Shown piece by piece: positions 820 to 40,169 of a DNA stretch of 64,000 nt (position 1 is its first letter; the number at the start of each line of letters is the position of its first letter). The notes under the pieces are model-generated. The model did not search any database. It saw only the letters and a program-made list of their open reading frames with translations, and was not told the origin of the DNA. This stretch comes from Deltaproteobacteria bacterium (lineage in GTDB: Bacteria > Desulfobacterota > GWC2-55-46), in contig JAIOIE010000018.1 of the NCBI GenBank assembly GCA_019912665.1, positions 624,690 through 688,689 on the forward strand, read 5' to 3'. The position numbers and the translations under genes are program-made.

Positions 820-1621
820 CGGTCAAATGCAGGGCATAGGTCACGGGAGCGCCGGGAGCATATCCTACAGGCCCGGGCGGAGCCTCTTCGCGGCCCTCAT
901 CGTACTCCTGGCATTGGCGGCAGCGTCCTTCGGCTTTCTCCTCTGGTATGTGCCGACAGTGGGCCTCCGGAACATCCATCCGGCGCTTCCCTGGCTCCTG
1001 GGCGTTATCACGTTCGTCTTTTCGCTTGCCATCTTCGGGGGCGGCGCGATAATACTGAACGCCGCGCTGCTCGGGAAGGTCCCCTTCTACTCCGGGTGGC
1101 TCCGCTGGCTCATAATGAGGTTTTACCTCCCGGTCATGTCACTGGCCGGGGCGCTCCTGAAAATGCCCAGGATAAAGATCGAACAGGCCTTCATAGAGCT
1201 CAATAACCAGATGGTCAGGATGATGGCCAGGGGCTTGAAACCAGGGCGCCTCCTCATACTCATGCCCCATTGCATACAGTTCGACAACTGCAAGATAAAG
1301 GTCACGAGGGACGTCAGGAACTGCGCCGGCTGCGGAAAGTGCGAGATAGGAGAGCTCGTTAATCTAAGCGACGAGTTCGGCATAAACCTCTTCATCTCGA
1401 CCGGCGGCACCGTCGCGAGGAGAAAAGTCCAGGAGGAGAGGCCGGACGCTGTCATAGCGGTCGCCTGCGAGAGGGACCTCGCGAGCGGCCTTCAGGACGC
1501 CTATCCCCTTCCGGTCCTGGCCATAGTAAACGAAAGGCCCCGCGGCTATTGCATGGAGACCGGGGTCGCGGTCAAAGACGTGCGCCAGGCCATTATAGAG
1601 CTTGCAGGCCGTGCCCCTTAG
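812..1621 (+). CDS. DUF116 family membrane protein with a Cys-rich C-terminal domain
   Basis: N-terminal TM helices are followed by CIQFDNC..CAGCGKCEIG..VACERDL, as in DUF116 proteins, which often follow fmt. TTG at 812 overlaps the fmt stop; ATG at 827 is an alternative start. Confidence 0.7.
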   Translation: MADGQMQGIGHGSAGSISYRPGRSLFAALIVLLALAAASFGFLLWYVPTVGLRNIHPALPWLLGVITFVFSLAIFGGGAIILNAALLGKVPFYSGWLRWLIMRFYLPVMSLAGALLKMPRIKIEQAFIELNNQMVRMMARGLKPGRLLILMPHCIQFDNCKIKVTRDVRNCAGCGKCEIGELVNLSDEFGINLFISTGGTVARRKVQEERPDAVIAVACERDLASGLQDAYPLPVLAIVNERPRGYCMETGVAVKDVRQAIIELAGRAP

Positions 1622-1772
1622 CCCACCCTCCAAACCGGTAACCGGAACATATACCTTTCCACGCTCGCTTCAAATGTACTCCCTTAATAAGATATAATCA
1701 AAAGAGAGCCGGTCGCTTCCGCGGAGCCGATCAGTTCGGGTTTCCGGCAGCAGGCCGGGCCGGGAGGGCCTT

Positions 1773-2609
1773 ATGAACTATTTGAAGACAGCCGCCCTTT
1801 TAGCGGTGCTTACAGCCTTGTTGATCTTCCTGGGAGACATGCTCGGCGGACGCCAGGGCGCGATACTTGCGCTTATCTTCGCGGGGGTCATGAACTTCGG
1901 GGCCTACTGGTGGAGCGACAAAATAGTGCTCAGGATGTATAACGCCAGGAGGGTGGACGAGGGGAGCGCGCCAGGCCTCTACCGCATAGTGGCGGAGCTT
2001 GCTTCAAGGGCCGGGATGCCGATGCCCGCAGTCCATATAATAGAGAACGATACCCCAAATGCCTTCGCCACTGGCCGGAACCCGGACCATGCGGCGGTGG
2101 CAGTGACGACCGGGATTATGAGGATACTGAACAGAGAGGAACTCGAAGGGGTAATAGCTCACGAGCTTTCGCACGTAAAGCACAGGGACATACTCATATC
2201 ATCGGTCGCTGCGACCATTGCCGGAGCCATAACCCTCCTTGCGCGCCTGGCGTACTTTTCGGCCATATTCGGCGGACGGCGCGGACGGGGCGGCAACCCT
2301 TTGGCGCTGCTCGTGATGATGATAGTCGCGCCGATAGCCGCGATGATAGTGCAGCTCGCCGTGTCAAGGTCGAGGGAGTACGGGGCCGACGACGGAGGGG
2401 CCAGGCTCACTAACCCGCTTTACCTCGCGAGCGCTTTGAGGAAGCTCGAGTATCAGAACAGGCGCCATCCCATGGAAGTAAACGACGGAACGGCGCACCT
2501 CTTTATAGTTAACCCATTGAGCGCCCGGTCTTTCGCCAAGCTCTTCTCCACCCACCCGCCAATAGCGGAACGGGTCCGGCGGCTTGAGGGGAAAGCGGGC
2601 GGCTTGTGA
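1773..2609 (+). CDS. htpX: Zinc metalloprotease HtpX (peptidase M48)
   Basis: TM helices, the HELSHVKHRD (HExxH) motif, and the C-terminal FSTHPPIAERV typical of HtpX. A GGGAGGG RBS lies just upstream of the ATG. Confidence 0.9.
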   Translation: MNYLKTAALLAVLTALLIFLGDMLGGRQGAILALIFAGVMNFGAYWWSDKIVLRMYNARRVDEGSAPGLYRIVAELASRAGMPMPAVHIIENDTPNAFATGRNPDHAAVAVTTGIMRILNREELEGVIAHELSHVKHRDILISSVAATIAGAITLLARLAYFSAIFGGRRGRGGNPLALLVMMIVAPIAAMIVQLAVSRSREYGADDGGARLTNPLYLASALRKLEYQNRRHPMEVNDGTAHLFIVNPLSARSFAKLFSTHPPIAERVRRLEGKAGGL

Positions 2610-2668
2610 AACGGACTCGCAAAAAGGCGACCCATTGGAAGGACCGCATTTGCTTTCAAACAGCAGTT

Positions 2669-2836
2669 TTAGCAGGTTACGGGAAAAACACGGGATTCGC
2701 TAAAGGCTGCTCAAAAAGCTCCAGATGCGAGGCCCCCCGTTGTTGGAAATGGGAAGCGAGGAAGAGGGTATTTTTGCATACGTCGGAGTGTCAAGCGACG
2801 AAGCCAACGAAGCGGATGGACTTTTTCAGCGGCCTA
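2669..2836. repeat. Intergenic hairpin repeat, family 1, copy 1
   Basis: Left module ttagcaggttacgggaaaaac, then inverted termini aggctgctcaaaaag (2703) and ctttttcagcggcct (2821). Related copies lie at 19537-19688, 34477-34532 and 51780-51889. Confidence 0.7.
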
Positions 2837-2844
2837 CTTAGGAT

Positions 2845-3255
2845 TCAGGTCCTCTGATGCTCGTTCCTCTTCTTATAAAAAGTCAGGAACTCATCCATCG
2901 CGTCCCTGTCAGATTCGGTAAGGTCGAGGAACATTATGCCGTAGCGAAGTATCTTCCTGGGGGTTTCGCTAGTCGGTCTTATCCTCCTTGGCGCCGCCTC
3001 GGTGCCGGGCTCCACGCGAATTATCTCGCCGGTTATCTCAACCGACCTGTCGGTACCGGGCAGGGTGAAGGTGTACTTTACGAGGGAGCCTTTGGGTACC
3101 ATGAAGCCGGTCTCTACCAGCGCGCCGCTCGTGCTTATGTTTACGGTATTGCAGAGGCACGATTCCGCCGGAGCGGAGCTCCCTTCAAGCTTGAGCTTGC
3201 CGAGTATCTGAAGCTCAAATCTATCCGCCCTCGCCAGCTCCTTCAGGTTTCCCAT
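2845..3255 (-). CDS. PilZ domain protein
   Basis: 136 aa with NISTSG (N-x-S-x-x-G), the c-di-GMP-binding PilZ signature, and a beta-rich remainder. Codon usage matches the neighbouring genes. Confidence 0.7.
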   Translation of the reverse strand: MGNLKELARADRFELQILGKLKLEGSSAPAESCLCNTVNISTSGALVETGFMVPKGSLVKYTFTLPGTDRSVEITGEIIRVEPGTEAAPRRIRPTSETPRKILRYGIMFLDLTESDRDAMDEFLTFYKKRNEHQRT

Positions 3256-3467
3256 CTCGAATCCTCTCTCGCGGCTGTGCGTAAAGGCCGTTTAGGCCGT
3301 TAAATTCTAAGGATTGTCACTATATACCACGAATGAAAGCGGAGGTGAAATCTTTTTTTCATGCCGCTCGTCAGTATCGGTTCAAGCCGACATGATTTGA
3401 GTTGCTTTTCAGGCCTTATTTTGTTAGTATCCGGAAAAATATCCCTTTTAAATGCAATAGGAGGAAT

Positions 3468-4034
3468 ATGGGCAGCTCAAAAATATATGATACTCTTTTA
3501 AAGACGGCATTATTGTCATTTACCGCTCTACTGCTTGTTACGCCTTACGGCTGCTCCAAGGCCGAGAAGGAAGCCGCCGCTCCTGCCGAGCAGCAGCAAC
3601 AACAACAGCAGACCGCCGACCCGTCCGACCCGGCAAAGGCGCATTTCGAAAAAGGAGTGCAGCATCTCCTTAAAAAAGAATACGACCTCGCGATAAAGGA
3701 GTACGAGACCGTGCTCCAGTATAACCCCAAGAGCGCCGAAACATATAATAACCTGGGGTTCGCTTATTTCGACACCGGAGAGTTTGAAAAGGCCTCGGAA
3801 GCCCAAAAGAAGGCAGTCGAGATCAAACCTGACATGGCCAACGCATATTACGGGCTCGCAATGGCCCAGGAAAAGACCGGCGACCTTGTCGGGGCCCTTG
3901 AGAGCTGGAAGGCCTTCTCCGGCCTCACACAGCCGAACAGCAAATGGTGGGCCAAGGCCCAGGAGCGGATACAGGTCCTGGAAAACTACAAATCCGCACA
4001 CGGTCAGGACGCAGGCAAGCCTGCCGGACACTGA
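3468..4034 (+). CDS. TPR-repeat secreted protein, possibly a lipoprotein
   Basis: AGGAGG RBS before ATG 3468. Signal peptide ending PYGC, a Gln-rich linker (QQQQQQQ), then TPR repeats (AIKEYETVLQYNPKSAETYNNLGFAYF, ANAYYGLAMA). Confidence 0.75.
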   Translation: MGSSKIYDTLLKTALLSFTALLLVTPYGCSKAEKEAAAPAEQQQQQQQTADPSDPAKAHFEKGVQHLLKKEYDLAIKEYETVLQYNPKSAETYNNLGFAYFDTGEFEKASEAQKKAVEIKPDMANAYYGLAMAQEKTGDLVGALESWKAFSGLTQPNSKWWAKAQERIQVLENYKSAHGQDAGKPAGH

Positions 4035-4051
4035 AACCTGCAAGACTTTAA

Positions 4052-4090
4052 AATAAAAAAGGCAGGCCTTTTGGCCCGCCTTTTTTTTTG
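4052..4090. terminator. Bidirectional Rho-independent terminator between convergent genes
   Basis: aaaaaaGGCAGGCCttttGGCCCGCCttttttttt: a GC hairpin flanked by an A-run and a T-run, between the TPR gene (+) and purA (-). Confidence 0.75.
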
Positions 4091-4126
4091 CCCTTTGCGA
4101 GGATTGGGTCTAAAGAAGCGCTGAAT

Positions 4127-5419
4127 TTACTTGAACGGGTCCTTTATTACGATGGCGTCCTTCCTGTTCGCGCCCACCGAGACTATCACGGCCTCCACAC
4201 CCGATAGCTCCTCGAGCCTCCTCACATAATCCCTTGCCTTTGAGGGGAGCTTCTCAAAGCTCGTTACACCCTGCGTGGGCGCGCGCCAGCCCTCGATCTC
4301 TTCGTAGACCGGCTCGCAGCCGGAAAGGACGGCCCCTTCGGTCGGGAAGTCGTCTATCAACTTCCCCTTGTATCTGTACCCGGTGCAGACCTTTATCTTA
4401 TCGAGCTTGTCGAGCACGTCGAGCTTGGTTATGACGAGGCCGTCAAGGCCGTTGACCCTGGCCGCGTACCTCAAGGCCACTGCGTCGAACCAGCCGCACC
4501 TCCTCGGTCTTCCTGTGGTCGCGCCGTACTCCCCACCCTGCTCGCGGAGCCATTCGGCCTCGGCCCCGGAAAGCTCGGTCGGGAAGGGACCCTCGCCCAC
4601 CCTTGTGCAGTACGCCTTTGTTATGCCTATTACCTTGTCTATCCTTGAAGGCCCTATGCCGCTCCCGGTGACCGCTCCGCCCGCGACCGTGCTGCTGGAT
4701 GTGACATACGGGTAAGTGCCATGGTCTATGTCGAGGAGCGTGCCCTGGGCGCCCTCGAAGAGTATCTTCTTGCCCTCTTCCGAGGCGGACCAGAGAAACC
4801 TGGAGGTGTCCCTTATGAACGGCGCCATGGCCGAGGCATAGGACATGTAAGCCTCATGGACCTGGCCGGCGTCGAATCCTTCCTCGCCGAGTATGGTCTT
4901 TATGAACTGGCTCTTCTCGACGAGGTTGGCCTCGAGTTTCCGCCTGAAGGCGTCGGCGTCGAAGAGGTCGCCGCATTTTATGCCGCACCTTGCGACCTTG
5001 TCCTCGTAGGCCGGGCCTATGCCGCGGCCGGTTGTGCCTATTTTCGCAGCGCCTCTCAGTTTCTCGCGCGCTATGTCCAGCTTCTTATGGTAGGGCATTA
5101 TAAGGTGCGCGTCCTTGCTTATAAGGAGGTCCTCGGGCCTGAAGATGCCTTTCGCCTTAAGGAGCTCTATCTCCTTCACGAGCACCTCGGGGTCGAGCAC
5201 CACGCCAGCGCCGATTACGCAGGTCTTTCCCGGATGGAGCACGCCGGAAGGAAGAAGGTGGAATATGTATTTCTCCGAACCGACGATAACGGTATGCCCC
5301 GCGTTATTCCCGCCCTGAAAGCGGACGACCACGTCCGCGCTCTCCGTGAGGATGTCGACGATCTTTCCCTTGCCCTCGTCCCCCCACTGGGCGCCTACTA
5401 TTACTATGTTCCTGGCCAT
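4127..5419 (-). CDS. purA: Adenylosuccinate synthetase
   Basis: MARNIVIVGAQWGDEGKGKIVD P-loop at the N-terminus, GGNNAGHT, and full-length PurA-like sequence. An upstream ATG at 5449 would form an ATGA overlap with the hisZ stop and is a possible alternative start. Confidence 0.93.
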   Translation of the reverse strand: MARNIVIVGAQWGDEGKGKIVDILTESADVVVRFQGGNNAGHTVIVGSEKYIFHLLPSGVLHPGKTCVIGAGVVLDPEVLVKEIELLKAKGIFRPEDLLISKDAHLIMPYHKKLDIAREKLRGAAKIGTTGRGIGPAYEDKVARCGIKCGDLFDADAFRRKLEANLVEKSQFIKTILGEEGFDAGQVHEAYMSYASAMAPFIRDTSRFLWSASEEGKKILFEGAQGTLLDIDHGTYPYVTSSSTVAGGAVTGSGIGPSRIDKVIGITKAYCTRVGEGPFPTELSGAEAEWLREQGGEYGATTGRPRRCGWFDAVALRYAARVNGLDGLVITKLDVLDKLDKIKVCTGYRYKGKLIDDFPTEGAVLSGCEPVYEEIEGWRAPTQGVTSFEKLPSKARDYVRRLEELSGVEAVIVSVGANRKDAIVIKDPFK

Positions 5420-5445
5420 CCTTCCCCTGTCCTTTTCCGAATTCT

Positions 5446-6450
5446 TCATTTCCCGCCGGTCCTGGCCTCCAGGCCGGATGAGAGCTGCTCGACGTCAAAG
5501 GCGAAGCCAGTGGCCCTGCACGGATACCCGTACTTCTCAAGCAGGCTGTCATATCTGCCGCCCGAGAGGATGGGCTTCCCGATGCCCGGGGCGAAGCCTT
5601 CGAATATGATGCCCGTGTAATAATCGAAGCCCCTGACCTCGCCGAGGTCTATGGTTATCCAATCCCTGAGCCCGCTGGAGGCTATCGCTTCCATCACCTT
5701 CCCGAGATAATCGAGGGAGGCCAGGGCCGAAGGGTCTTTCGTGAGCGAAGCCGCCTTCTCTATGACCTCTTCCTCGCCGTAGAATGTGGTGAGGTTCATA
5801 AGGAGCTCCTTGTCGCCCGCGCCTATGCTGTCAATTCGGCCAAGGAGCGTTTCCAGCCCCGAGGTGTCTTTTTTCTCAAGGAGGCCCTGCACCGTTTTCC
5901 TCAAGCCCTCGTCGAAATGGCTCTCAAGGACCTTCTTAAGGAACCCGACGTCGCCGATGTCGATCTTGAAGTCCTTAAGGCCCACGGCCTTAAGCGCCTC
6001 GACGGCCATTATTATCATCCTGGCGTCGTCTTCCGGGGAGGCCTCCGCGGATATGTACTCCGCCCCAATCTGCAGGACCTCCCGCTTCCTTCCGTCCCTC
6101 GTGTCCTGGTACCTTACCACACTTTCGTTATAGCAGAGTTTCAAGGGAAGCGCGTGAGCGCGCATCCTGGTCGCGGCCACCCTCGCTATCTGGGGCGTTA
6201 TGTCCGGCCTTATTGCTATGACCCGGCCGGTGGGCGGGTCTATGAACTTAATGACGCTCTCCAGGAGGTCGGACCCGGCTCCGATTGAAAGGACGTCCGC
6301 GTACTCGAGTAGCGGCGTGATCACCTTCCTGAAGCCGTACCTTGAGAATACCGAGAGTATCCCGGACTCGACTGCCCCGATCCTCTCGGCTTCTTCAGGC
6401 AATATGTCTCTTACGCCCTGCGGCAGGGATATGGTAGGCGAATTTATCAT
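5446..6450 (-). CDS. hisZ: ATP phosphoribosyltransferase regulatory subunit (HisRS paralogue)
   Basis: Class II aaRS-like core (LPQGVRDILPEE, GGRYD) with no anticodon-binding domain. The start is placed at ATG 6450 because ATG 6486 lies inside the serA terminator hairpin. Confidence 0.8.
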   Translation of the reverse strand: MINSPTISLPQGVRDILPEEAERIGAVESGILSVFSRYGFRKVITPLLEYADVLSIGAGSDLLESVIKFIDPPTGRVIAIRPDITPQIARVAATRMRAHALPLKLCYNESVVRYQDTRDGRKREVLQIGAEYISAEASPEDDARMIIMAVEALKAVGLKDFKIDIGDVGFLKKVLESHFDEGLRKTVQGLLEKKDTSGLETLLGRIDSIGAGDKELLMNLTTFYGEEEVIEKAASLTKDPSALASLDYLGKVMEAIASSGLRDWITIDLGEVRGFDYYTGIIFEGFAPGIGKPILSGGRYDSLLEKYGYPCRATGFAFDVEQLSSGLEARTGGK

Positions 6451-6538: not shown

Positions 6539-8122
6539 TCAGAGCTCCACGACGTCGGCCTTTATCATATGCGGGAGCTTGAGTATTTTCTCTATGAGCC
6601 CCTTGGATATGGGCGTGTCCACGCTCCAGACAGATACGGCCGCGCCTCCGACAGCCTGCCTGCCGAGATGGAGCCTCGCGACGTTTATGTTGTTCGCGGC
6701 AAGGAGAGTGCCCACGTTCCCGATGACGCCGGGCTTGTCCTCGTTCTGAAGGAGAAGGAGGTATCCTTCGGGCACTGCGTCAAGCAGGAACTTGTCTATC
6801 CTCACTATCCTCGGCTCCTTCTTGCCGAAGAGCGCGCCCTCGACCACGTTCTCCTCGTCCTTGGTGCCGACCTTTATGGTCACGGAGCTTGCGAAATCCG
6901 TGGACCTCGAGCTCTTTATCTCGACTACCTTTATCCCGCGCTCCTTTGCCACGAACGGGGCGTTCACGAAATTGACGTACATGTCGAGGACCTGGTCAAG
7001 GAGGCCCTTGAGGCACGAGATGGTTATGGGCGCGACGTCGTAGTTGACGACGTCCCCGCTGTACTCGATAGTTACCTCCTCTATGCCGCCCTTAAGTATC
7101 TGCCCCTGGAAGCTCCCGAGCTTCTCGCCGAGCGAGATATAGGGCCCGAGCGCCGTCAGGAGCTCGGCCGGTATGGAGGGCACGTTCACCGCGTTCCTTA
7201 TGGTGCCGTTCACGAGGTAGTCGACGATTTGCTCGGCTATGGCCACGGCCACGCTCTCCTGCGCCTCCTGCGTGGATGCGCCGAGATGCGGGGTGAGGAT
7301 CACCTCATCGAGCTGAAGGAGCGGGTTGTCGGCCGGGGTGGGCTCCTTCTCGAAGACGTCCATGGCCGCGCCCGAGACTATCTTGTCCTTTATGGCCTCA
7401 GCGAGGTCGGCCTCGTTCACTATGCCGCCCCTTGCGCAGTTAATTATCTTTACGCCCTTCTTCATCTTCCTGAAGGCGTCGGCGTTAACGATATTCTTCG
7501 TCTCGTTCGTAAGCGGCACGTGTATGGAAATGAAGTCGCTTCTCCTGAAGAGCTCGTCCACGGTGACGAGGGCTATGCCCATCTTGTCGGCCGCCTCCTC
7601 GGATATGAAGGGGTCGTAGGCTATGACGTTCATCCGAAGGCCCAGGGCCCTGCTAGCGACGACGCTCCCGATATTACCCACGCCGAGGATGCCGAGGGTC
7701 TTCCCGGTTATCTCGGTCCCCTCGAACTTCTTCTTCTCCCATTCGCCCTTCCTCATGGAGGCGGTAGCCTGGGGGATCTTCCTTGCAAGGGCCATCATCA
7801 TGGCGATCGCGTGCTCGGCTGTCGTGATGGTGTTGCCGCCAGGGGTGTTCATTACAACTATCCCCTTTTTGGTCGCGGCGATCGTGTCTATGTTGTCCAC
7901 ACCCGTCCCGGCGCGGCCTATGACCTTGAGGTTTTCGGCGGCCTCGATTATCTCGGCCGTGGCCTTCGTGGCGCTCCTTACGACAAGGCCGTGATAATCC
8001 TTTATCTTGGCCTTGAGCTCATCGGGCTTAAGATTGGTTATTACGTCCACTTCGAGGCCGGGCGTATTTTTGAGGACGTCAACGGCCTTCGAAGACATGC
8101 TGTCGCTTATGAGTACCTTCAT
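6539..8122 (-). CDS. serA: D-3-phosphoglycerate dehydrogenase (long form with C-terminal ACT domain)
   Basis: MKVLISD start, NAD-binding GILGVGNIGS, 2-hydroxyacid dehydrogenase core, and an ACT-like C-terminus. The start follows directly after the upstream gene's stop. Confidence 0.92.
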   Translation of the reverse strand: MKVLISDSMSSKAVDVLKNTPGLEVDVITNLKPDELKAKIKDYHGLVVRSATKATAEIIEAAENLKVIGRAGTGVDNIDTIAATKKGIVVMNTPGGNTITTAEHAIAMMMALARKIPQATASMRKGEWEKKKFEGTEITGKTLGILGVGNIGSVVASRALGLRMNVIAYDPFISEEAADKMGIALVTVDELFRRSDFISIHVPLTNETKNIVNADAFRKMKKGVKIINCARGGIVNEADLAEAIKDKIVSGAAMDVFEKEPTPADNPLLQLDEVILTPHLGASTQEAQESVAVAIAEQIVDYLVNGTIRNAVNVPSIPAELLTALGPYISLGEKLGSFQGQILKGGIEEVTIEYSGDVVNYDVAPITISCLKGLLDQVLDMYVNFVNAPFVAKERGIKVVEIKSSRSTDFASSVTIKVGTKDEENVVEGALFGKKEPRIVRIDKFLLDAVPEGYLLLLQNEDKPGVIGNVGTLLAANNINVARLHLGRQAVGGAAVSVWSVDTPISKGLIEKILKLPHMIKADVVEL

Positions 8123-8123
8123 A

Positions 8124-9269
8124 TCACTTGTATCCTTCCGCGAGAATTTGAAGGGCGGCCGCAACACCCTTCCCGTACTGGGCCTTGTACCCGAACTTGT
8201 TGAGCGCTATCTCGAGGGCCGAGATGGCCGTTACGACATCGAAGGTGTCCACGTACCCGAGGTGCGCGACCCTCACTATCTTGCCCTTCAGGTGGTCCTG
8301 GCCGCCGGCCATGGTGACCCCCATGTCGTCCCTCATGTATTTCACGAGCTTTCCACCCTCGACCCCTTCGGGGACGAAGATGCCGGTAGTGGCATTGGAG
8401 GGGTTCTCGGGGGCGAGGAGCTTAAGCCCCAAGGCCTCTGCCGCGGCCCTTGTGGCCCTGGCCAGCCTATCATGCCTCGCGAAGACGTTTTGTAGCCCCT
8501 CTTCCTTTATCATCAGAAGGGCCTGCCTCAGGCCGGTTATGAGGGAGACGGCCGGGGTATAGGCGGAGGTATTGTCCTTAAGGTTCTTCCTCTCCTTCTT
8601 GAAATCGAAATAGAACCTGGGGCACTTGGCGGTCTCCTGGAATTTCCAGGCCTTCTCCGAGAGCGCTACGAAGGCGAGTCCGGGCGGGAGCATGAAGGCC
8701 TTCTGGGAGCCGGAAACAAGGACGTCTATGCCCCAGTCGTCCATGGGGAGATCGAATACGCCGACGCCGGTTATGCCGTCGACTATGAGGAGGCATTCCC
8801 TGTCTTTCGTAAGGGCCGCAAGCTCTTTTGTCGGATGGGCTACGGTCGTCGAGGTCTCGCTCGCCTGGACGAGCACTGCCCGTGATTTCGGGTTCTCATC
8901 CAGTACCTTCTTTACGACGGCCGGGTCGACCGCCTTGCCCCATTCTACATTTATCCAGTGGGCCTTCAGGCCGTAGGCCTCGGAGATCTTCCCCCACCTC
9001 TCACCGAACTTTCCGCCGTTTATTACGACCACCTCGTCTCCGGGGGAGAAGAGGTTGGTGATCGAGCCTTCCATGGCGCCGGTCCCCGAGGCGGCGAGCA
9101 TTAGGACGTCCTGCTTCGTCTGGAATACGTATTTAAGGAGCTCAGCCGTTTCCTTGAAGACCTCCGAGAACTGGGGGGTCCTGTGGTGGATTATGGGCTG
9201 GGCCATCGCAAGGAGCGCCGACTCGGGCACAGGTGTCGGGCCGGGCGCCAGAAGGTAACTCTTTCTCAT
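8124..9269 (-). CDS. Class V aminotransferase (serine-glyoxylate / phosphoserine aminotransferase family)
   Basis: LAPGPTPVP N-terminus and the SGSQKAF PLP-lysine motif. GGGAGG RBS. Co-transcription with serA suggests a phosphoserine aminotransferase role. Confidence 0.85.
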   Translation of the reverse strand: MRKSYLLAPGPTPVPESALLAMAQPIIHHRTPQFSEVFKETAELLKYVFQTKQDVLMLAASGTGAMEGSITNLFSPGDEVVVINGGKFGERWGKISEAYGLKAHWINVEWGKAVDPAVVKKVLDENPKSRAVLVQASETSTTVAHPTKELAALTKDRECLLIVDGITGVGVFDLPMDDWGIDVLVSGSQKAFMLPPGLAFVALSEKAWKFQETAKCPRFYFDFKKERKNLKDNTSAYTPAVSLITGLRQALLMIKEEGLQNVFARHDRLARATRAAAEALGLKLLAPENPSNATTGIFVPEGVEGGKLVKYMRDDMGVTMAGGQDHLKGKIVRVAHLGYVDTFDVVTAISALEIALNKFGYKAQYGKGVAAALQILAEGYK

Positions 9270-9736
9270 GACTTAAGATTCCTCCCTTTCATCTTTTGAA
9301 AATAATTTGATCAGAACAATAAAGAGGGCCGCCAGATTTTACTGACGGCTCCAGGGGCCTGGCTCGTAACAGCTTGATTTTTAGGCCTTTTAAGGCCTTC
9401 TACAGCCAAAAAAAACCGCCTGGGGCCGTTCCATACTACCTCGTTAGAGGTAAATGCGATGCCCAGACGGTCGACAAGTATATGATCCTTCGCTCCCCGG
9501 TGGTCCCCCACCTTGATTCCGTCAGTCACGAAGGAGACTGCCTCTGTATGGGGTCTATACTAATCTTACTCCGGGGTTTTTGTCAAGCGGGATTTTGGGC
9601 CGGAAACCGAGAGTCGGCCTGGGCCTCAAAGCCCCCGCCTTTCGGTCTTTTGGTTTTACTTATGGTGTCGAAAAAGGTTATGATTAGCATCTGTCCGGGC
9701 CTTGATGCCCGGTAATCGACGACAGGATGTCTTAAG

Positions 9737-10441
9737 ATGCCAAAAGGCGTAACAGTAGTGCTTCCCACCTATAATGAAAGGGAGAACATAGGGAAGCTGG
9801 CCCGCGGGATACTCGATTCGGTCAGGACGGACGTCGAGATCATAGTGGTTGACGACGACTCCGAGGACCTGACATGGAAGGCGGTCGAGGAAATGGGCCT
9901 CCCTTCGGTGCGGGTCATAAGGAGGGTCGGCGAGAAGGGCCTCACATCGGCGATAAACCGCGGCATAAGCGAAAGCCGTTATGATTTAGTAGCGTGGATG
10001 GACGCGGACCTTTCGATGCCCCCGGATAAGATAAACGACCTCCTCGCGTGCCTTGAGCGGCATGACATAGCTGTGGGCTCCCGTTACGTGCCGGGCGGCA
10101 GGGACCTCGGGGACTCGCGAACTGCCGCCTTCATGAGCCGCCTCCTGAGCATAATCGCCAAGACGGTCCTGAATGTCCCCGTGAACGATATGAACAGCGG
10201 CTTTATAGCTACGAAAAAGGAGATAGTGAAAGAACTCGGGCTGAGGGGCGACTACGGCGAGTACTGCCTCGACTTCCTCTACAGGGCCCATAAGAAAGGG
10301 TATAGCATAGCTGAAGCGCCGTATGTATGCGTACCACGGCTTAAGGGCGTATCCAAGACAGCTACCGGCCTCCTGGGCTTTTTCTGGCGCGGGAGGAAGT
10401 ACATATACTCCATAATGAAACTACGGCTGGCCCGCATATAA
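9737..10441 (+). CDS. Family 2 glycosyltransferase, polyprenyl-phosphate sugar synthase-like (DPM1/ArnC-like)
   Basis: VVLPTYNERENI, VVDDDSED (DxD), AINRG, and VGSRY, typical of Dpm1/ArnC/GtrB-type GT2 enzymes. At 234 aa it has no C-terminal TM segment. Confidence 0.85.
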   Translation: MPKGVTVVLPTYNERENIGKLARGILDSVRTDVEIIVVDDDSEDLTWKAVEEMGLPSVRVIRRVGEKGLTSAINRGISESRYDLVAWMDADLSMPPDKINDLLACLERHDIAVGSRYVPGGRDLGDSRTAAFMSRLLSIIAKTVLNVPVNDMNSGFIATKKEIVKELGLRGDYGEYCLDFLYRAHKKGYSIAEAPYVCVPRLKGVSKTATGLLGFFWRGRKYIYSIMKLRLARI

Positions 10442-35557: not shown

Positions 35558-35735
35558 TGTCATTGCGAGCATACCGAAGAATCTTGCCCAACAGTCCATC
35601 AAACCTTTGCTGTCATTCTGAGCGGAGCGAAGAATCTCGACGTATGCCTTCCCCAAGACTCTTTTCTATCATTCCGAGGCAAGTCCCTCGTCATTGCGAG
35701 AGACGCAAGTCCTGCAGGGTGCGCTTTGCGCACCA
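35558..35735. repeat. Cluster of family 2 short repeats (tgtcattSYgagcg..gaagaatct modules)
   Basis: tgtcattgcgagcataccgaagaatcttgc (35558), tgtcattctgagcggagcgaagaatctcga (35611), and tatcattccgagg../cgtcattgcgagagacgcaagtcctgc (35667-35727). The same module forms an inverted pair at 61899-61983. Confidence 0.7.
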
Positions 35736-36383: not shown

Positions 36384-36478
36384 GAAATGAACATACCATA
36401 GGAAAGCTGGTGCAGTCAAGAGGGGAGGGGGCGCGATTTGACAATGTTCCCTGCACCCCCGTGAACGAAAAATGTCGT

Positions 36479-36507
36479 TTGAGAAAACGAATAGTTTATG
36501 CTATAAA
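36479..36507 (+). promoter_or_regulatory. Putative sigma70-type promoter of the low-GC two-gene operon
   Basis: TTGAGA-N17-TATAAA in an AT-rich spacer, about 75 nt upstream of ATG 36584. Confidence 0.35.
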
Positions 36508-36568
36508 AAACGCACAGAATCCTTGTTGAAGCTTTTGGCGAATAGCACATTAATAATTTCCCGCATAT

Positions 36569-36602
36569 CCCTCTGAAATTGAAATGAAAACCGCTCAGAG
36601 GG
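36569..36602 (+). promoter_or_regulatory. Hairpin enclosing the first ATG of the 36584 ORF
   Basis: CCCTCTGA (36569-76) pairs with TCAGAGGG (36595-602), and ATG 36584 lies in the loop. This could be translational control, or the real start may be ATG 36623. Confidence 0.3.
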
Positions 36603-37504
36603 GCGAATTCAGACACCTTCTTATGATTAGAAAAAGGACCTTTTTCCTATTTATAAACGGGCTTTCTGTCCTTACATTAGGGATTTTGCCTTTTGGACAA
36701 AATCTGCTAGGCTTGCTTAGTAACTCCATTTTCAACCAACTCCTTACCTATATCCTCATTACTCATGCACCAGAAACGGTCTTGCTTTGTGGCGCTTATT
36801 CTGCAAGTTACAGCATTATACCCTCATGGTTGTTTACTAGAAAAGAGCGGAATCGATTAAAAAAGAAATTTATTGAGAGAATTCACAGCGAATTGCTTGA
36901 CGGAAATGCCGATACTCATAGAGTAACACTCTTTAGAGAAGTTGGTTATTTACGGGTCTTTATCAGAAATTACTGTAATTTATTTAGACATTTATTTTCC
37001 AATAACAGATGGCGTTGGAATTTATATTTACTACCTCCACAATATGGCAAATACCTAATCGTCGATGTAAGATGTGGGCGTCCTTATCAGAACAATTCGT
37101 CTACGATGTTTCGTGTCGAACCATACGAAGAAAAAGATTGTGATGGGATTGCAGGTTACATAAGATTTTCAAATTCTAAGGCCTGCATAACAGATCTGCC
37201 AGATATAAGTCAGATAGAATTTAAAAATTATAAAAATTTAGAAGAAGTCGCATATAGGCCAGATAAGAAAAAAATACGCGAGTATATGGAATATGGTTAC
37301 ATAAAAGAGTTTACAGCATTAAGAAAAATGCACAGTAGGGCTCGTCATTTTTTGGGAACTGTAATAAACAATAAGGATGGGTCACCATCAGGGGTCCTTT
37401 TAATTGATAGCGTAGCAAATAGTAATCCATTCAATTCAGAAATAGAGAAGCGATTTAACTCGTTTGCAATATCAGTATATGATATTGTCAATTGGGAGGC
37501 CTAA
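36584..37504 (+). CDS. Hypothetical membrane protein: two N-terminal TM helices plus a GAF-like cytoplasmic domain
   Basis: 306-aa ORF in the low-GC island. TM segments at about residues 19-37 and 52-84. The C-terminal part has a GAF-like pattern (RVTLFRE, GIAGYIRFSNSKACITDLPD, HFLGTVINNKDGSPSGVLLIDS). Alternative start at 36623. Confidence 0.7.
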   Translation: MKTAQRGEFRHLLMIRKRTFFLFINGLSVLTLGILPFGQNLLGLLSNSIFNQLLTYILITHAPETVLLCGAYSASYSIIPSWLFTRKERNRLKKKFIERIHSELLDGNADTHRVTLFREVGYLRVFIRNYCNLFRHLFSNNRWRWNLYLLPPQYGKYLIVDVRCGRPYQNNSSTMFRVEPYEEKDCDGIAGYIRFSNSKACITDLPDISQIEFKNYKNLEEVAYRPDKKKIREYMEYGYIKEFTALRKMHSRARHFLGTVINNKDGSPSGVLLIDSVANSNPFNSEIEKRFNSFAISVYDIVNWEA

Positions 37505-37954
37505 ATGAGCACTAATAGAGCAATCGTTGTAAATAAGGAACTTTATAATAAGCCCATAGCGGACCTTCATAAAACACGTGTTAGAATTAAGCTTTATCTT
37601 CCACCAAGCGATATTCCTAAGACGATATCGCCTAATTACAATAAAAACGAAGACAGGTTGACTATCACATTCGACTATATCGACTCCGAGAAAGAAAAAG
37701 AACTTTTGAATAGAGATGGCATCAAATTGATTGTGGGCGTTTATAGTGGGAAGCCCCTTAGAATTGAGATAAGTAATATTAAAAAAGAACGCATTGACAA
37801 TGTAAAACTCACAAACATAATAGAGAGCGAGATTGGCAAACTAATCGATTCAAAAAAATCTGAACTTGAAGGTGCCAGGGAAAAAGCCAATTTAAGCTTT
37901 GCTGAAGAGCTTTTAAAGAGCAATGCTGGCATCTTGGCTCAAGCAACTCTCTAA
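37505..37954 (+). CDS. Hypothetical 149-aa protein, operon partner of the 2TM-GAF-like gene
   Basis: The ATG abuts the upstream stop (TAAATG) and shares the same low GC. A beta-rich N-terminal half (RLTITFDYID..GIKLIVGVYSGKPLRIEISNI) is followed by a helical Lys/Glu-rich C-terminus. Confidence 0.7.
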   Translation: MSTNRAIVVNKELYNKPIADLHKTRVRIKLYLPPSDIPKTISPNYNKNEDRLTITFDYIDSEKEKELLNRDGIKLIVGVYSGKPLRIEISNIKKERIDNVKLTNIIESEIGKLIDSKKSELEGAREKANLSFAEELLKSNAGILAQATL

Positions 37955-38017
37955 TCAGAGCCCCTTGTGGGAAGCAAGAACGATTCTAACTCTCAATGTA
38001 CTGGTTTCATACCGTAT

Positions 38018-38054
38018 TTTTTTAGAAAAAGAATAAGGGTGCGCGGGCGCACCC
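38018..38054 (-). terminator. Rho-independent terminator after the dienelactone hydrolase gene
   Basis: GGGTGCGC-gg-GCGCACCC hairpin, followed on the minus strand by ttattctttttct. Confidence 0.6.
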
Positions 38055-38091
38055 TTCGAGCTTAGAAACAAGTTTCTCGACTCTCAACCCC

Positions 38092-38877: not shown

Positions 38878-39056
38878 CGTGACCTCCTTGAAGGCCGGCC
38901 CATCAGGGCACAGTGTGTTTTATCATCGGGCGTTCAGCCTTTTCGCCTGTCATTAGGAGTATACAATATTTTTTGAAAGGGGCAGGGACTTCGAACCGGG
39001 CAGGGCCTTGGGCGAGCAAAAAAGGGGCAACGAGTTCCCGTAGCCCCTTTAACTTT

Positions 39057-39098
39057 TGTGGGCCGCATAGGCGTCAACCTGCGACCCGCTGATTAAAG
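39057..39098 (-). pseudogene. Degenerate copy of the 3' half of a tRNA-Lys gene (acceptor 3' strand, T arm, up to the anticodon loop)
   Basis: tgtgggccgcataggcgtcaacctgcgacccgctgattaa aligns with 40095-40136 of tRNA-Lys, with about 36 of 43 positions identical by eye. The T stem no longer pairs. A terminator-like hairpin follows at 39024-39056, as downstream of the intact tRNA. Confidence 0.65.
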
Positions 39099-39251
39099 GG
39101 TATCCCTCGGAAAAACTTTTCTTTTGCTTCTGTTTGCTTTCATTTGCTCCCGCCTACCTTCTATGGCCTTTTTAGCGGACAGCAGGCTTTTGCCCCCTTT
39201 AAGGAGTTTTTTCTTTCGGGCATACAAAAACCATAGGCCCGCGACGACCTC

Positions 39252-39929
39252 CTAACTTCGAATCACACCATTCCGCGGGGCACTGCCGGGAGTTCCCTCA
39301 TCGTTATGGTAGTCCCTGAAATAAACCACCAATGTCCAGAGGATGACCAGGGGGATACCCAACTCCAAAGATTCCTCGAGGTAGGTGACATAGGCCGACC
39401 AGGCATCCGGCAGATATACTCCCAGAGACCTGAGCTTTCGCTGGAAACCGTCAAGGGTTTTCACCAGAGCTGCCAGCAGGAAACCAGCTATAGACAACAT
39501 GTAAATCCTGCCATGAGCGGCAAAGCCCCGGCGGAAACGGATAAGGTGCTGCTTCAAAATCATCACGGCAATCCACGCCAGTATCATCAGCACCAGGCTC
39601 CCCAATAACTTTTCCGCCAAAGGGGTATGCCCCGTATAAAACTCGAGCTTCATCAAGCCGACTGATGTGAATCTCCTGTTGAAATCCAACTCTCTCAATG
39701 CGCAAAAAACAAACAGGGCAATAAAGTAAGGTCGGGTACGGACGAACCGAACACCCCCTTTGAAAAAGGCGTAAGCCGCCGCCAGGCCGTATCCCAGCGC
39801 CGACAAGCTCTCGATCAGATTATTTTCCCTGAATAATGCGGTCGATCCAGGCTGGAGATAAGGCAAGAACGAAACTCCAAACAGGATCAGCACCAGAAAA
39901 AGACAAAACAGGATGTCTTTGCGTTGCAT
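39252..39929 (-). CDS. Hypothetical polytopic membrane protein
   Basis: 225 aa with about 6 hydrophobic helices and no recognised motif. GC is visibly lower than the neighbours. Lies between the tRNA-Lys gene and its partial copy. Confidence 0.6.
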   Translation of the reverse strand: MQRKDILFCLFLVLILFGVSFLPYLQPGSTALFRENNLIESLSALGYGLAAAYAFFKGGVRFVRTRPYFIALFVFCALRELDFNRRFTSVGLMKLEFYTGHTPLAEKLLGSLVLMILAWIAVMILKQHLIRFRRGFAAHGRIYMLSIAGFLLAALVKTLDGFQRKLRSLGVYLPDAWSAYVTYLEESLELGIPLVILWTLVVYFRDYHNDEGTPGSAPRNGVIRS

Positions 39930-40037
39930 GGCAAGAAGCAGCCTCCGCGGGTGAGGGTTTCTCCGCTGACAGGACAGTAAAGCCGTTAAAGTGCTTCAGA
40001 ACCATGACCGAAGATCAACTATACAGAAACTATACAG

Positions 40038-40084
40038 CAAAAAAGAAAAAGGGGTTGCAGGATTTGAAAAAATCCTGCAACCCC
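40038..40084 (-). terminator. Rho-independent terminator downstream of tRNA-Lys
   Basis: GGGGTTGCAGGATT-loop-AATCCTGCAACCCC, followed on the minus strand by tttttctttttt. Confidence 0.75.
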
Positions 40085-40093
40085 TTCCTGATT

Positions 40094-40169
<76 letters not shown>

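Follow-up and report, generated by a model that had tools for sequence, protein, structure and literature searches.

The stretch of DNA analysed here, referred to as the window, comprises 64,000 nt from a Deltaproteobacteria bacterium (contig JAIOIE010000018.1, positions 624,690 to 688,689). Its subject is a low-GC island with two genes, A and B, located between the regulator of a polysaccharide cluster and a dienelactone hydrolase gene. An initial annotation, made from the sequence letters, had placed the island at 36420-38040 and proposed it to be a horizontally acquired, two-gene module of the conflict or defence type. The G+C content (GC) of positions 36480-38030 was found to be 0.362, compared with 0.565 for the 64-kb window. 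In sliding windows, the GC was 0.33-0.40 over 36500-38000 and 0.55-0.66 in the flanks, and the island is the lowest-GC 1500-nt stretch of the 64 kb, about 6 standard deviations under the mean. At third codon positions (GC3), values of 0.33 for A and 0.37 for B were obtained, against 0.62-0.79 for four neighbouring genes. The low-GC island was thereby confirmed. The two co-oriented open reading frames (ORFs) described earlier are present (Table 1), and are joined by an overlap-free junction, TAAATG, made of the stop codon of A and the start codon of B.

A search for relatives of the flanking regulator yielded 41 loci. A and B are absent from the two closest sister genomes among these, namely L064 (regulator 96% and hydrolase 91% identical) and L065 (regulator 94% identical). 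The flanks of these sisters are 87-91% identical in DNA to the window; in blastn comparisons with both genomes, homology ends at 36431-36438 and restarts at 38088-38091. These breakpoints define a swapped segment, a cassette of ~1.65 kb (Table 1). The boundaries lie near those first drawn, although the right-hand hairpin, which had been read as the terminator of the hydrolase flank, falls within the swapped segment and is therefore not part of a conserved hydrolase flank. The same island and the same junctions were found in at least nine assemblies from different samples, one of which is a 1.55-Mb contig labelled Desulfobacterota UBA5799, and the identity of the junctions across these independent assemblies rules out an assembly chimera. 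The foreign composition of the cassette, together with its absence from the two closest sister genomes, which carry other cargo at the same junctions, strongly supports the proposal that the island is foreign DNA, acquired horizontally.

The other occupants of the slot include genes of known defence systems. In L064, the slot holds a Bro-N protein that matches the PADLOC candidate PDC-S13 (E 3e-108), and in L065 it holds a 270-aa HsdR-N-type (HSDR_N) nuclease-like protein. A more distant relative, L076, carries a complete IetAS system (IetA, E 8e-99; IetS, E 1e-277), located at 2339-5698, divergent and upstream of the regulator homologue, indicating that the role of the slot as a defence hotspot is not confined to the closest relatives. 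In L069, whose regulator is 71% identical, the slot is filled with three ORFs that match nothing in Pfam or PADLOC; these co-oriented ORFs of 165, 269, and 401 aa occupy 386-2884, upstream of the regulator, and may be another candidate cargo of unknown function. The GC of the L069 cargo is 0.30, as measured over the 2 kb upstream of the regulator, and the GC downstream is 0.58.

The cassette in L064 is flanked by an extra 3′ end of the hydrolase gene (245 nt) and an extra 5′ end of the regulator gene (90 nt), at 3205-3449 and 4584-4673. Both extra pieces, along with genes for a MetA-type porin and a lipoprotein, lie nested in the interval between the full-length genes. The duplicated junctions suggest that cassettes were exchanged repeatedly through recombination in the flanks, rather than by site-specific integration. 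Neither direct repeats flanking the island nor an integrase gene within it was found. An integrase-mediated, tRNA-targeted island was rejected, as there are no flanking repeats and the tRNA-derived scar of the window brackets another segment (see below). The slot is a defence hotspot with at least four different cargoes, apparently exchanged by recombination.

Predicted proteins and expression signals

Neither protein could be assigned to a named family, as had been stated in the initial annotation. No match was found for A or B in Pfam, NCBIfam, PHROGs, or PADLOC (to E ≤ 1), and searches of family libraries with 27 members of the B family gave no significant match. For A, 67 diverse members gave no convincing Pfam match, with no GAF family at E ≤ 0.01, and the A-family profile had no match among Protein Data Bank (PDB) sequences. 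Homologues of A begin at the equivalent of M14, so that the real start is probably the ATG at 36623 (giving 293 aa), rather than that at 36584.

A word-seeded search with A recovered only seven clusters among 5.8 billion, whereas an exhaustive profile search recovered 354 representatives at E ≤ 1e-3, 47 of them at E ≤ 1e-30. Nearly all representatives are 275-300 aa long and match over their full length, and they fall into three main clades. No match was found by tblastn of A and two distant members against phage and plasmid collections, and a search for related loci with the close A alignment, in genome and viral collections, found none. A seemingly truncated A in a Planctomycetota locus was rejected, since a full-length ORF with an alternative start exists.

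The AlphaFold2 (AF2) model of A has a predicted local distance difference test score (pLDDT) of 78, and consists of helices at residues 3-42, 49-60, and 62-78, a basic linker helix (85-104), and an alpha/beta domain (112-302). The membrane anchor includes a clear transmembrane (TM) segment at residues ~18-45 and a weaker second hydrophobic helix at ~50-83; hydropathy in 19-residue windows exceeds 1.4 solely at centres 27-30, 36, and 50. The hydrophobic region is bordered by the basic stretches MIRKRT and TRKERNRLKKK, and basic residues on both of its sides suggest that the GAF domain is cytoplasmic. By the positive-inside rule, A would thus have two TM helices, an N-terminus inside the cell, and a cytoplasmic GAF domain.

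The GAF assignment was made at the level of fold. Foldseek comparison of the A model with the PDB gave 12 matches at E ≤ 1e-3, nearly all of them GAF domains or GAF-containing proteins. The top matches were PDE5A and PDE2A (E 7e-5, probability 1.0), with template modelling scores of up to 0.71 on single GAF domains, and the pLDDT over the GAF-fold region is ~90. A therefore belongs to the GAF superfamily by fold, but is not recognised by the Pfam GAF profile at the level of sequence. The hydrophobic N-terminal region and the GAF fold bear out the earlier description of a membrane anchor joined to a ligand-sensor-like domain. Among 127 full-length members, R113 and R163 are conserved in 100%, and T115, Y234, and D275 in ~98%. 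These Arg, Thr, Arg, Tyr, and Asp residues probably form a site for an anionic ligand or a partner peptide.

The AF2 model of B (pLDDT 78.7) has a disordered segment (residues 1-29), a five-strand beta-meander (40-90), and two long helices (99-148) that form a helical hairpin. The N-terminus is disordered in the model, yet conserved (R5, N10, and Y14). Neither the PDB nor BFVD contained a significant match to the fold of B, and B profiles matched none of the PDB sequences. B showed no match to helix-turn-helix (HTH), ribbon-helix-helix, or AbrB domains, and no recognisable enzymatic fold or catalytic motif. Homologues were limited to nine clusters in a word-seeded search and 15 with an extended profile, a scarcity attributed to the rapid evolution of B. 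Residues P38, F56, Y58, and E62 are invariant in all 27 aligned sequences, and on its alignments and profiles B is one fast-evolving family.

One lead on B came from the DUF2283/YuzE family, which carries a "predicted antitoxin" annotation (PMC12521503). The beta-meander of B weakly resembles viral DUF2283 proteins in BFVD (Foldseek E 0.02-0.7; probability up to 0.98; root-mean-square deviation ~3 Å over 50-70 residues). However, the match in sequence is not significant (one of the 27 B members, at E 0.089), and there is no DUF2283/YuzE entry among the 50 best PDB fold matches of B. Two parts of B, a conserved segment at the N-terminus and the long helical hairpin, are also additional to what DUF2283 has. 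The resemblance is treated as a lead only.

The candidate sigma-70 promoter proposed for the cassette, TTGAGA-N17-TATAAA, is present inside the swapped segment, with a TG just before the -10 element. It was not listed by a consensus promoter scan, because the rule of the scan demands a T at position 6 of the -10 element. A hairpin had also been described as enclosing the first ATG of A. The stem exists, but the region is as stable as shuffled sequence (z = -0.25), and with ATG 36623 as the likely start, the inverted repeat probably lies in the 5′ untranslated region. A regulatory start-codon hairpin was rejected, as the stability is no better than that of the shuffles.

The Shine-Dalgarno (SD) motifs of the two genes were found to differ markedly. 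An SD motif for B was present in 16 of 19 loci, mostly as GGAGG(T) and inside the conserved C-terminal codons of A, whereas A itself has one in 1 of 16 loci, the count for A being confined to those 16 whose estimated start falls on a valid start codon. This asymmetry points to an operon built to yield far more B than A, and an excess of B, as read from these motifs, would be the stoichiometry expected of a restrained dangerous effector. The codons for the conserved C-terminus of A, [W/M]-E-[V/A], in which E305 is invariant in the close family, make up the SD of B (37490-37504 in the window, and equivalent positions elsewhere); the conservation of the A C-terminus may therefore be partly at the RNA level. 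Downstream, the G+C-rich hairpin between the converging A/B operon and hydrolase gene is terminator-like on the - strand.

Table 1. Positions of the features of the A/B cassette in the window, and of the alternative partner gene in three other loci
Stretch	Feature	Positions	Strand	Basis or remark
Window	Swapped segment (promoter, two genes, hairpin)	36432-38090		blastn breakpoints; GC 0.36
Window	Candidate sigma-70 promoter	36479-36507	+	Read from sequence
Window	Inverted repeat CCCTCTGA/TCAGAGGG around first ATG	36569-36602	+	8-bp stem in minimum free energy structure
Window	Gene A	36584-37504	+	ORF, 306 aa from first ATG
Window	Hydrophobic membrane anchor, A residues ~18-83	36635-36832	+	Hydropathy and AF2
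Window	GAF-fold domain, A residues ~105-302	36896-37489	+	Foldseek against the PDB
Window	SD motif of B, GGGAGG	37494-37499	+	Read from sequence; within C-terminal codons of A
Window	Gene B	37505-37954	+	ORF, 149 aa
Window	G+C-rich palindromic hairpin between A/B and hydrolase gene	38035-38056		Terminator scan and inverted repeat
L019	Fusion protein replacing B	1338-2606		
L020	Fusion protein replacing B	8794-10062		
L055	Fusion protein replacing B	1012-2364		

Distribution, partners, and genomic neighbourhoods

Whether the two genes stay together in other genomes was a question raised with the island itself, and they were found to do so. In 22 of the 24 distinct loci that could be evaluated, which represent at least five phyla, B is the gene immediately downstream of A, and the gap between them is -28 to +25 nt. 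Remote forms of B, encoded by ORFs of 157-168 aa that follow A, were detected with a B profile built without them (E 1e-6 to 5e-4 per candidate). The remote pairs come from an Acidobacteria metagenome-assembled genome (MAG), a Gemmatimonadaceae MAG, Steroidobacter flavus CGMCC 1.10759, and two phage contigs. The Steroidobacter locus (L043; NZ_JBHSDU010000003.1, 486-2058) carries a distant, GC-rich pair; it is the sole cultured isolate found with A and B, and a possible experimental entry point.

Other partners were also observed. In three distinct loci (Table 1), B is missing, and the gene after A encodes a nucleoside 2-deoxyribosyltransferase (NDT) domain fused to an S-adenosylmethionine-dependent methyltransferase (422-450 aa in all); the fusion has a weak match to the PADLOC model "mad2". 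Such an enzymatic partner could point to a nucleotide-derived ligand of the GAF domain. In a Phycisphaerales MAG (L018), a distant A is followed, at 1257-1877, by a 206-aa protein, the C-terminus of which is a DUF2188 domain matching PADLOC PDC-S16 (E 4e-22). The N-terminus of this protein is faintly B-like, and a GIY-YIG gene comes next.

The association of the family with defence and mobile genes was read from individual loci. In L001, the pair adjoins an integrase and forms one end of a region in which a cI-like repressor and an excisionase-like HTH gene are found; in L004, its neighbour is a PemK toxin-antitoxin (TA) pair. Restriction-modification genes are repeated companions. In L015, the neighbours are DUF6339, PIN/MazE, and a restriction-modification pair of type IIS. 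In L021, a resolvase lies on one side of the pair, and a restriction-modification cluster accompanied by Vsr and an integrase on the other. Genes in the vicinity include AIPR, Vsr, a methylase, and an integrase in L025, and ResIII, a methylase, and a TnsA-like gene in L023. In L019, one of the loci with the NDT-type partner, A stands beside Lamassu-type genes, HNH, and a methylase.

Phages were found to carry the pair as well. It is present on an IMG/VR viral contig (L105), and in a phage tail module (L106), directly upstream of the tape-measure gene. In L106, the GC of the pair is 0.42, compared with 0.53 elsewhere on the contig, making it a textbook moron. The AT-rich stretch at 7657-8000 of this contig, at the end of the tail-chaperone region, contains a promoter-like TTGAAA...TATAAA just upstream of A, a motif that mirrors the cassette-borne promoter of the window. 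Overall, the pair is a low-GC moron in at least three phages or prophages, and its GC was below that of the surroundings in every locus tested.

Candidate function and rival explanations

The proposal of a conflict- or defence-type module is supported by genomic context, namely by the cargo of the slot, the conservation of the pair, its defence and mobile neighbours, and its occurrence as a phage moron. Defence genes occupy the same slot in relatives, and the family recurs beside defence and mobile genes. The literature searched contained no description of the A/B family. The closest known system is toxFtsL(D9):PanA of Gelidibacter mesophilus, a NetFlax pair (toxin WP_027127282.1; Ernits et al. 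2023; PMC10440598). The toxFtsL protein has 281 aa and is described as "GAF; FtsL; transmembrane", with an N-terminal membrane helix, a helical linker, and a GAF domain (PMC10440598). It is an experimentally validated toxin, neutralised by the adjacent small Panacea-domain antitoxin PanA; its effects are filamentation, FtsZ delocalisation, and delayed lysis, and membrane depolarisation is absent (PMC10440598).

The A family shares with toxFtsL its size (275-300 versus 281 aa) and the order of its parts, a likeness drawn from the description of the architecture only. Both systems are bicistronic, and direct neutralisation by the small partner is a feature of toxFtsL:PanA. In addition, toxFtsL belongs to a combinatorial partner-swapping network, and A likewise occurs with B, with the DUF2188 fusion, and with the NDT-methyltransferase fusion. 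The partners differ, being PanA for toxFtsL, and the unannotated beta-meander and helical-hairpin protein B for A; among the called neighbours of A homologues in the context tables, no Panacea/DUF4065 (PanA) gene is listed. Two degenerate-motif scans of 185,579 species genomes recovered four true A-family members, and no Gelidibacter was among them; WP_027127282.1 did not turn up in cluster look-ups of 20 representatives either. Toxicity, filamentation, and FtsZ delocalisation have been demonstrated for toxFtsL alone.

The interpretation that we favour, with a confidence slightly above an even balance, draws on genomic context and predicted structures: the island may be a mobile, two-gene TA-like or abortive-infection cassette, in which A would act as the membrane effector and B as its neutraliser or as an infection-sensitive sensor. 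A would be an inner-membrane toxin, composed of the anchor, the basic linker helix, and the cytoplasmic GAF domain. Unrestrained, it would act from the membrane to arrest the cell, through interference with division, as toxFtsL does, or with membrane integrity. B, as a cytoplasmic and translationally favoured protein, would keep A inactive, and could be the infection-sensitive element, through its displacement, titration, or degradation during phage infection. The toxicity of A and its neutralisation by B, as well as the trigger, the target, and the ligand, are what we infer from these features. A pair of the adjacent, co-transcribed type that is both conserved and mobile, as in type II TA systems, was found; an antitoxin with an autoregulating DNA-binding domain was not.

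Another similar kind of system is the two-gene abortive-infection module of prophages, made of a membrane protein and a cytoplasmic partner, such as RexA/RexB of phage lambda. Such modules resemble A/B in having two genes, a prophage moron position, their own promoter, and a membrane effector with a soluble partner. They differ in that no similarity in sequence or fold was found; RexB is a multi-pass membrane protein and has no GAF domain.

Several observations weigh against a TA-like or abortive-infection cassette. B has no DNA-binding domain, so that classic type II autoregulation is not evident, although such a domain is not present in all type II antitoxins. The toxin-first gene order, as proposed for A-B, is the less common order in TA systems. 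The check for a known defence system was negative for both proteins, which matched 0 families of the PADLOC-DB 2.0.0 models at E ≤ 1, and no toxin or antitoxin family of Pfam was matched. In three loci (L003, L018, and L029), the neighbours are housekeeping genes only. Finally, a signalling model would account for the pairing of A with the NDT-methyltransferase fusion no less well than an antitoxin model would.

The signalling model, which we regard as unlikely, is that of a ligand-gated effector similar to those of cyclic oligonucleotide-based antiphage signalling systems (CBASS) and Pycsar: the GAF domain would bind a small molecule, such as a nucleotide-derived signal or a phage metabolite, and would then activate the membrane part, and B, or an enzyme in its place, would be the sensor or the signal generator rather than an inhibitor. 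The TM effectors of CBASS and Pycsar combine a membrane-spanning region with a cytoplasmic small-molecule-binding domain, and are rare, mobile, and located in defence islands. A also joins a membrane region to a cytoplasmic putative sensor domain. GAF domains, to which all top fold matches of A belong, are classic sensors of small molecules such as cyclic nucleoside monophosphates (cNMP), and the invariant arginines of A, with its Thr, Tyr, and Asp, suggest an anionic-ligand site. The NDT-methyltransferase fusion, which replaces B in three distinct loci, could make or modify a nucleotide signal. However, the partner in 22 of the 24 loci is B, which has no enzymatic fold or catalytic motif, and the operon contains no cyclase, nucleotide synthase, or other signal synthase. 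The sensor of A has a GAF fold, whereas CBASS and Pycsar effectors use a cNMP-binding, SAVED, or beta-barrel domain, and A/B matched no PADLOC model. With no Pfam GAF match, the canonical cNMP-binding GAF signature is undetectable in A, and the high translation of B relative to A suits an inhibitor better than a catalytic sensor.

Still less probable, in our view, is a non-toxic module for superinfection exclusion or lysogenic conversion, in which A, with B, would block DNA entry or alter the envelope. The membrane anchor of A would fit such a role, as would the moron positions beside an integrase, upstream of a tape-measure gene, and on an IMG/VR contig. Yet A is predicted to be mostly cytoplasmic, with an outer loop of only a few residues, which would be unusual for a block of entry at the surface. 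Many copies lie in phage-free chromosomal defence islands, and a dangerous effector that is kept in check by a partner typically shows such SD asymmetry and tight coupling. We give very little credence to the view that A and B are an ordinary host signalling or regulatory pair, for instance one tied to the polysaccharide cluster, that is merely AT-rich, or else an assembly chimera. The island does abut the polysaccharide biosynthesis cluster and its regulator, and GAF domains are common in housekeeping signalling proteins, but the closest relatives keep the cluster and the regulator without A/B, and the pair occurs in phages and across unrelated phyla, where its neighbours are not conserved. 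The junctions shared by the independent assemblies exclude a chimera.

A more tentative proposal, to which we assign somewhat less than an even chance, is that A/B is an undescribed anti-phage family, spread by phages and by the exchange of cassettes at defence hotspots, in which a divergent, membrane-tethered GAF domain would sense an infection cue (a ligand or the loss of B), would arrest division or membrane function, and would work with interchangeable partners. The kind of system is known, namely mobile conflict cassettes of two genes, for which one validated TM-GAF toxin is a precedent; the A/B family is unannotated, and the partner family is new. If confirmed, a family of membrane-tethered GAF effectors (~354 clusters) and their fast-evolving partner would join the bacterial conflict systems, the single validated toxFtsL toxin would be linked to a wider phage-borne group, and an example would be gained of one effector module combined with different partners. 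Testing the prediction would be cheap, since two genes (1.4 kb) are involved and R113, R163, and D275 offer clear point mutants. The slot is also an example of a compact defence hotspot from a Desulfobacterota lineage that is uncultured.

Neighbouring features of the window

An integration scar at a tRNA locus near the island had been noted in the initial annotation. The scar is real, but it brackets a different 1-kb segment and does not delimit the island. It consists of 53 nt at 39044-39096 that imperfectly repeat the 3′ part of tRNA-Lys and match 40081-40135. The tRNA-Lys(ctt) gene is located at 40094-40169 on the - strand, and the duplicate also spans bases downstream of it. Between the duplicates lies ~1 kb (39097-40080), which contains an ORF for a 225-aa multi-pass membrane protein (39252-39929; GC 0.50) with no match in Pfam. 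The stretch 39044-40135 has the appearance of what is left of a small insertion targeted to the tRNA gene, and is distinct from the A/B island. On the other side of the island, between the epimerase and regulator genes (35558-35690), tandemly spaced short repeats were observed, e.g., TGTCATTGCGAGCATACCGAAGAATCT / TGTCATTCTGAGCGGAGCGAAGAATCT, with a spacing of 53-56 nt, which resemble a small intergenic repeat element.

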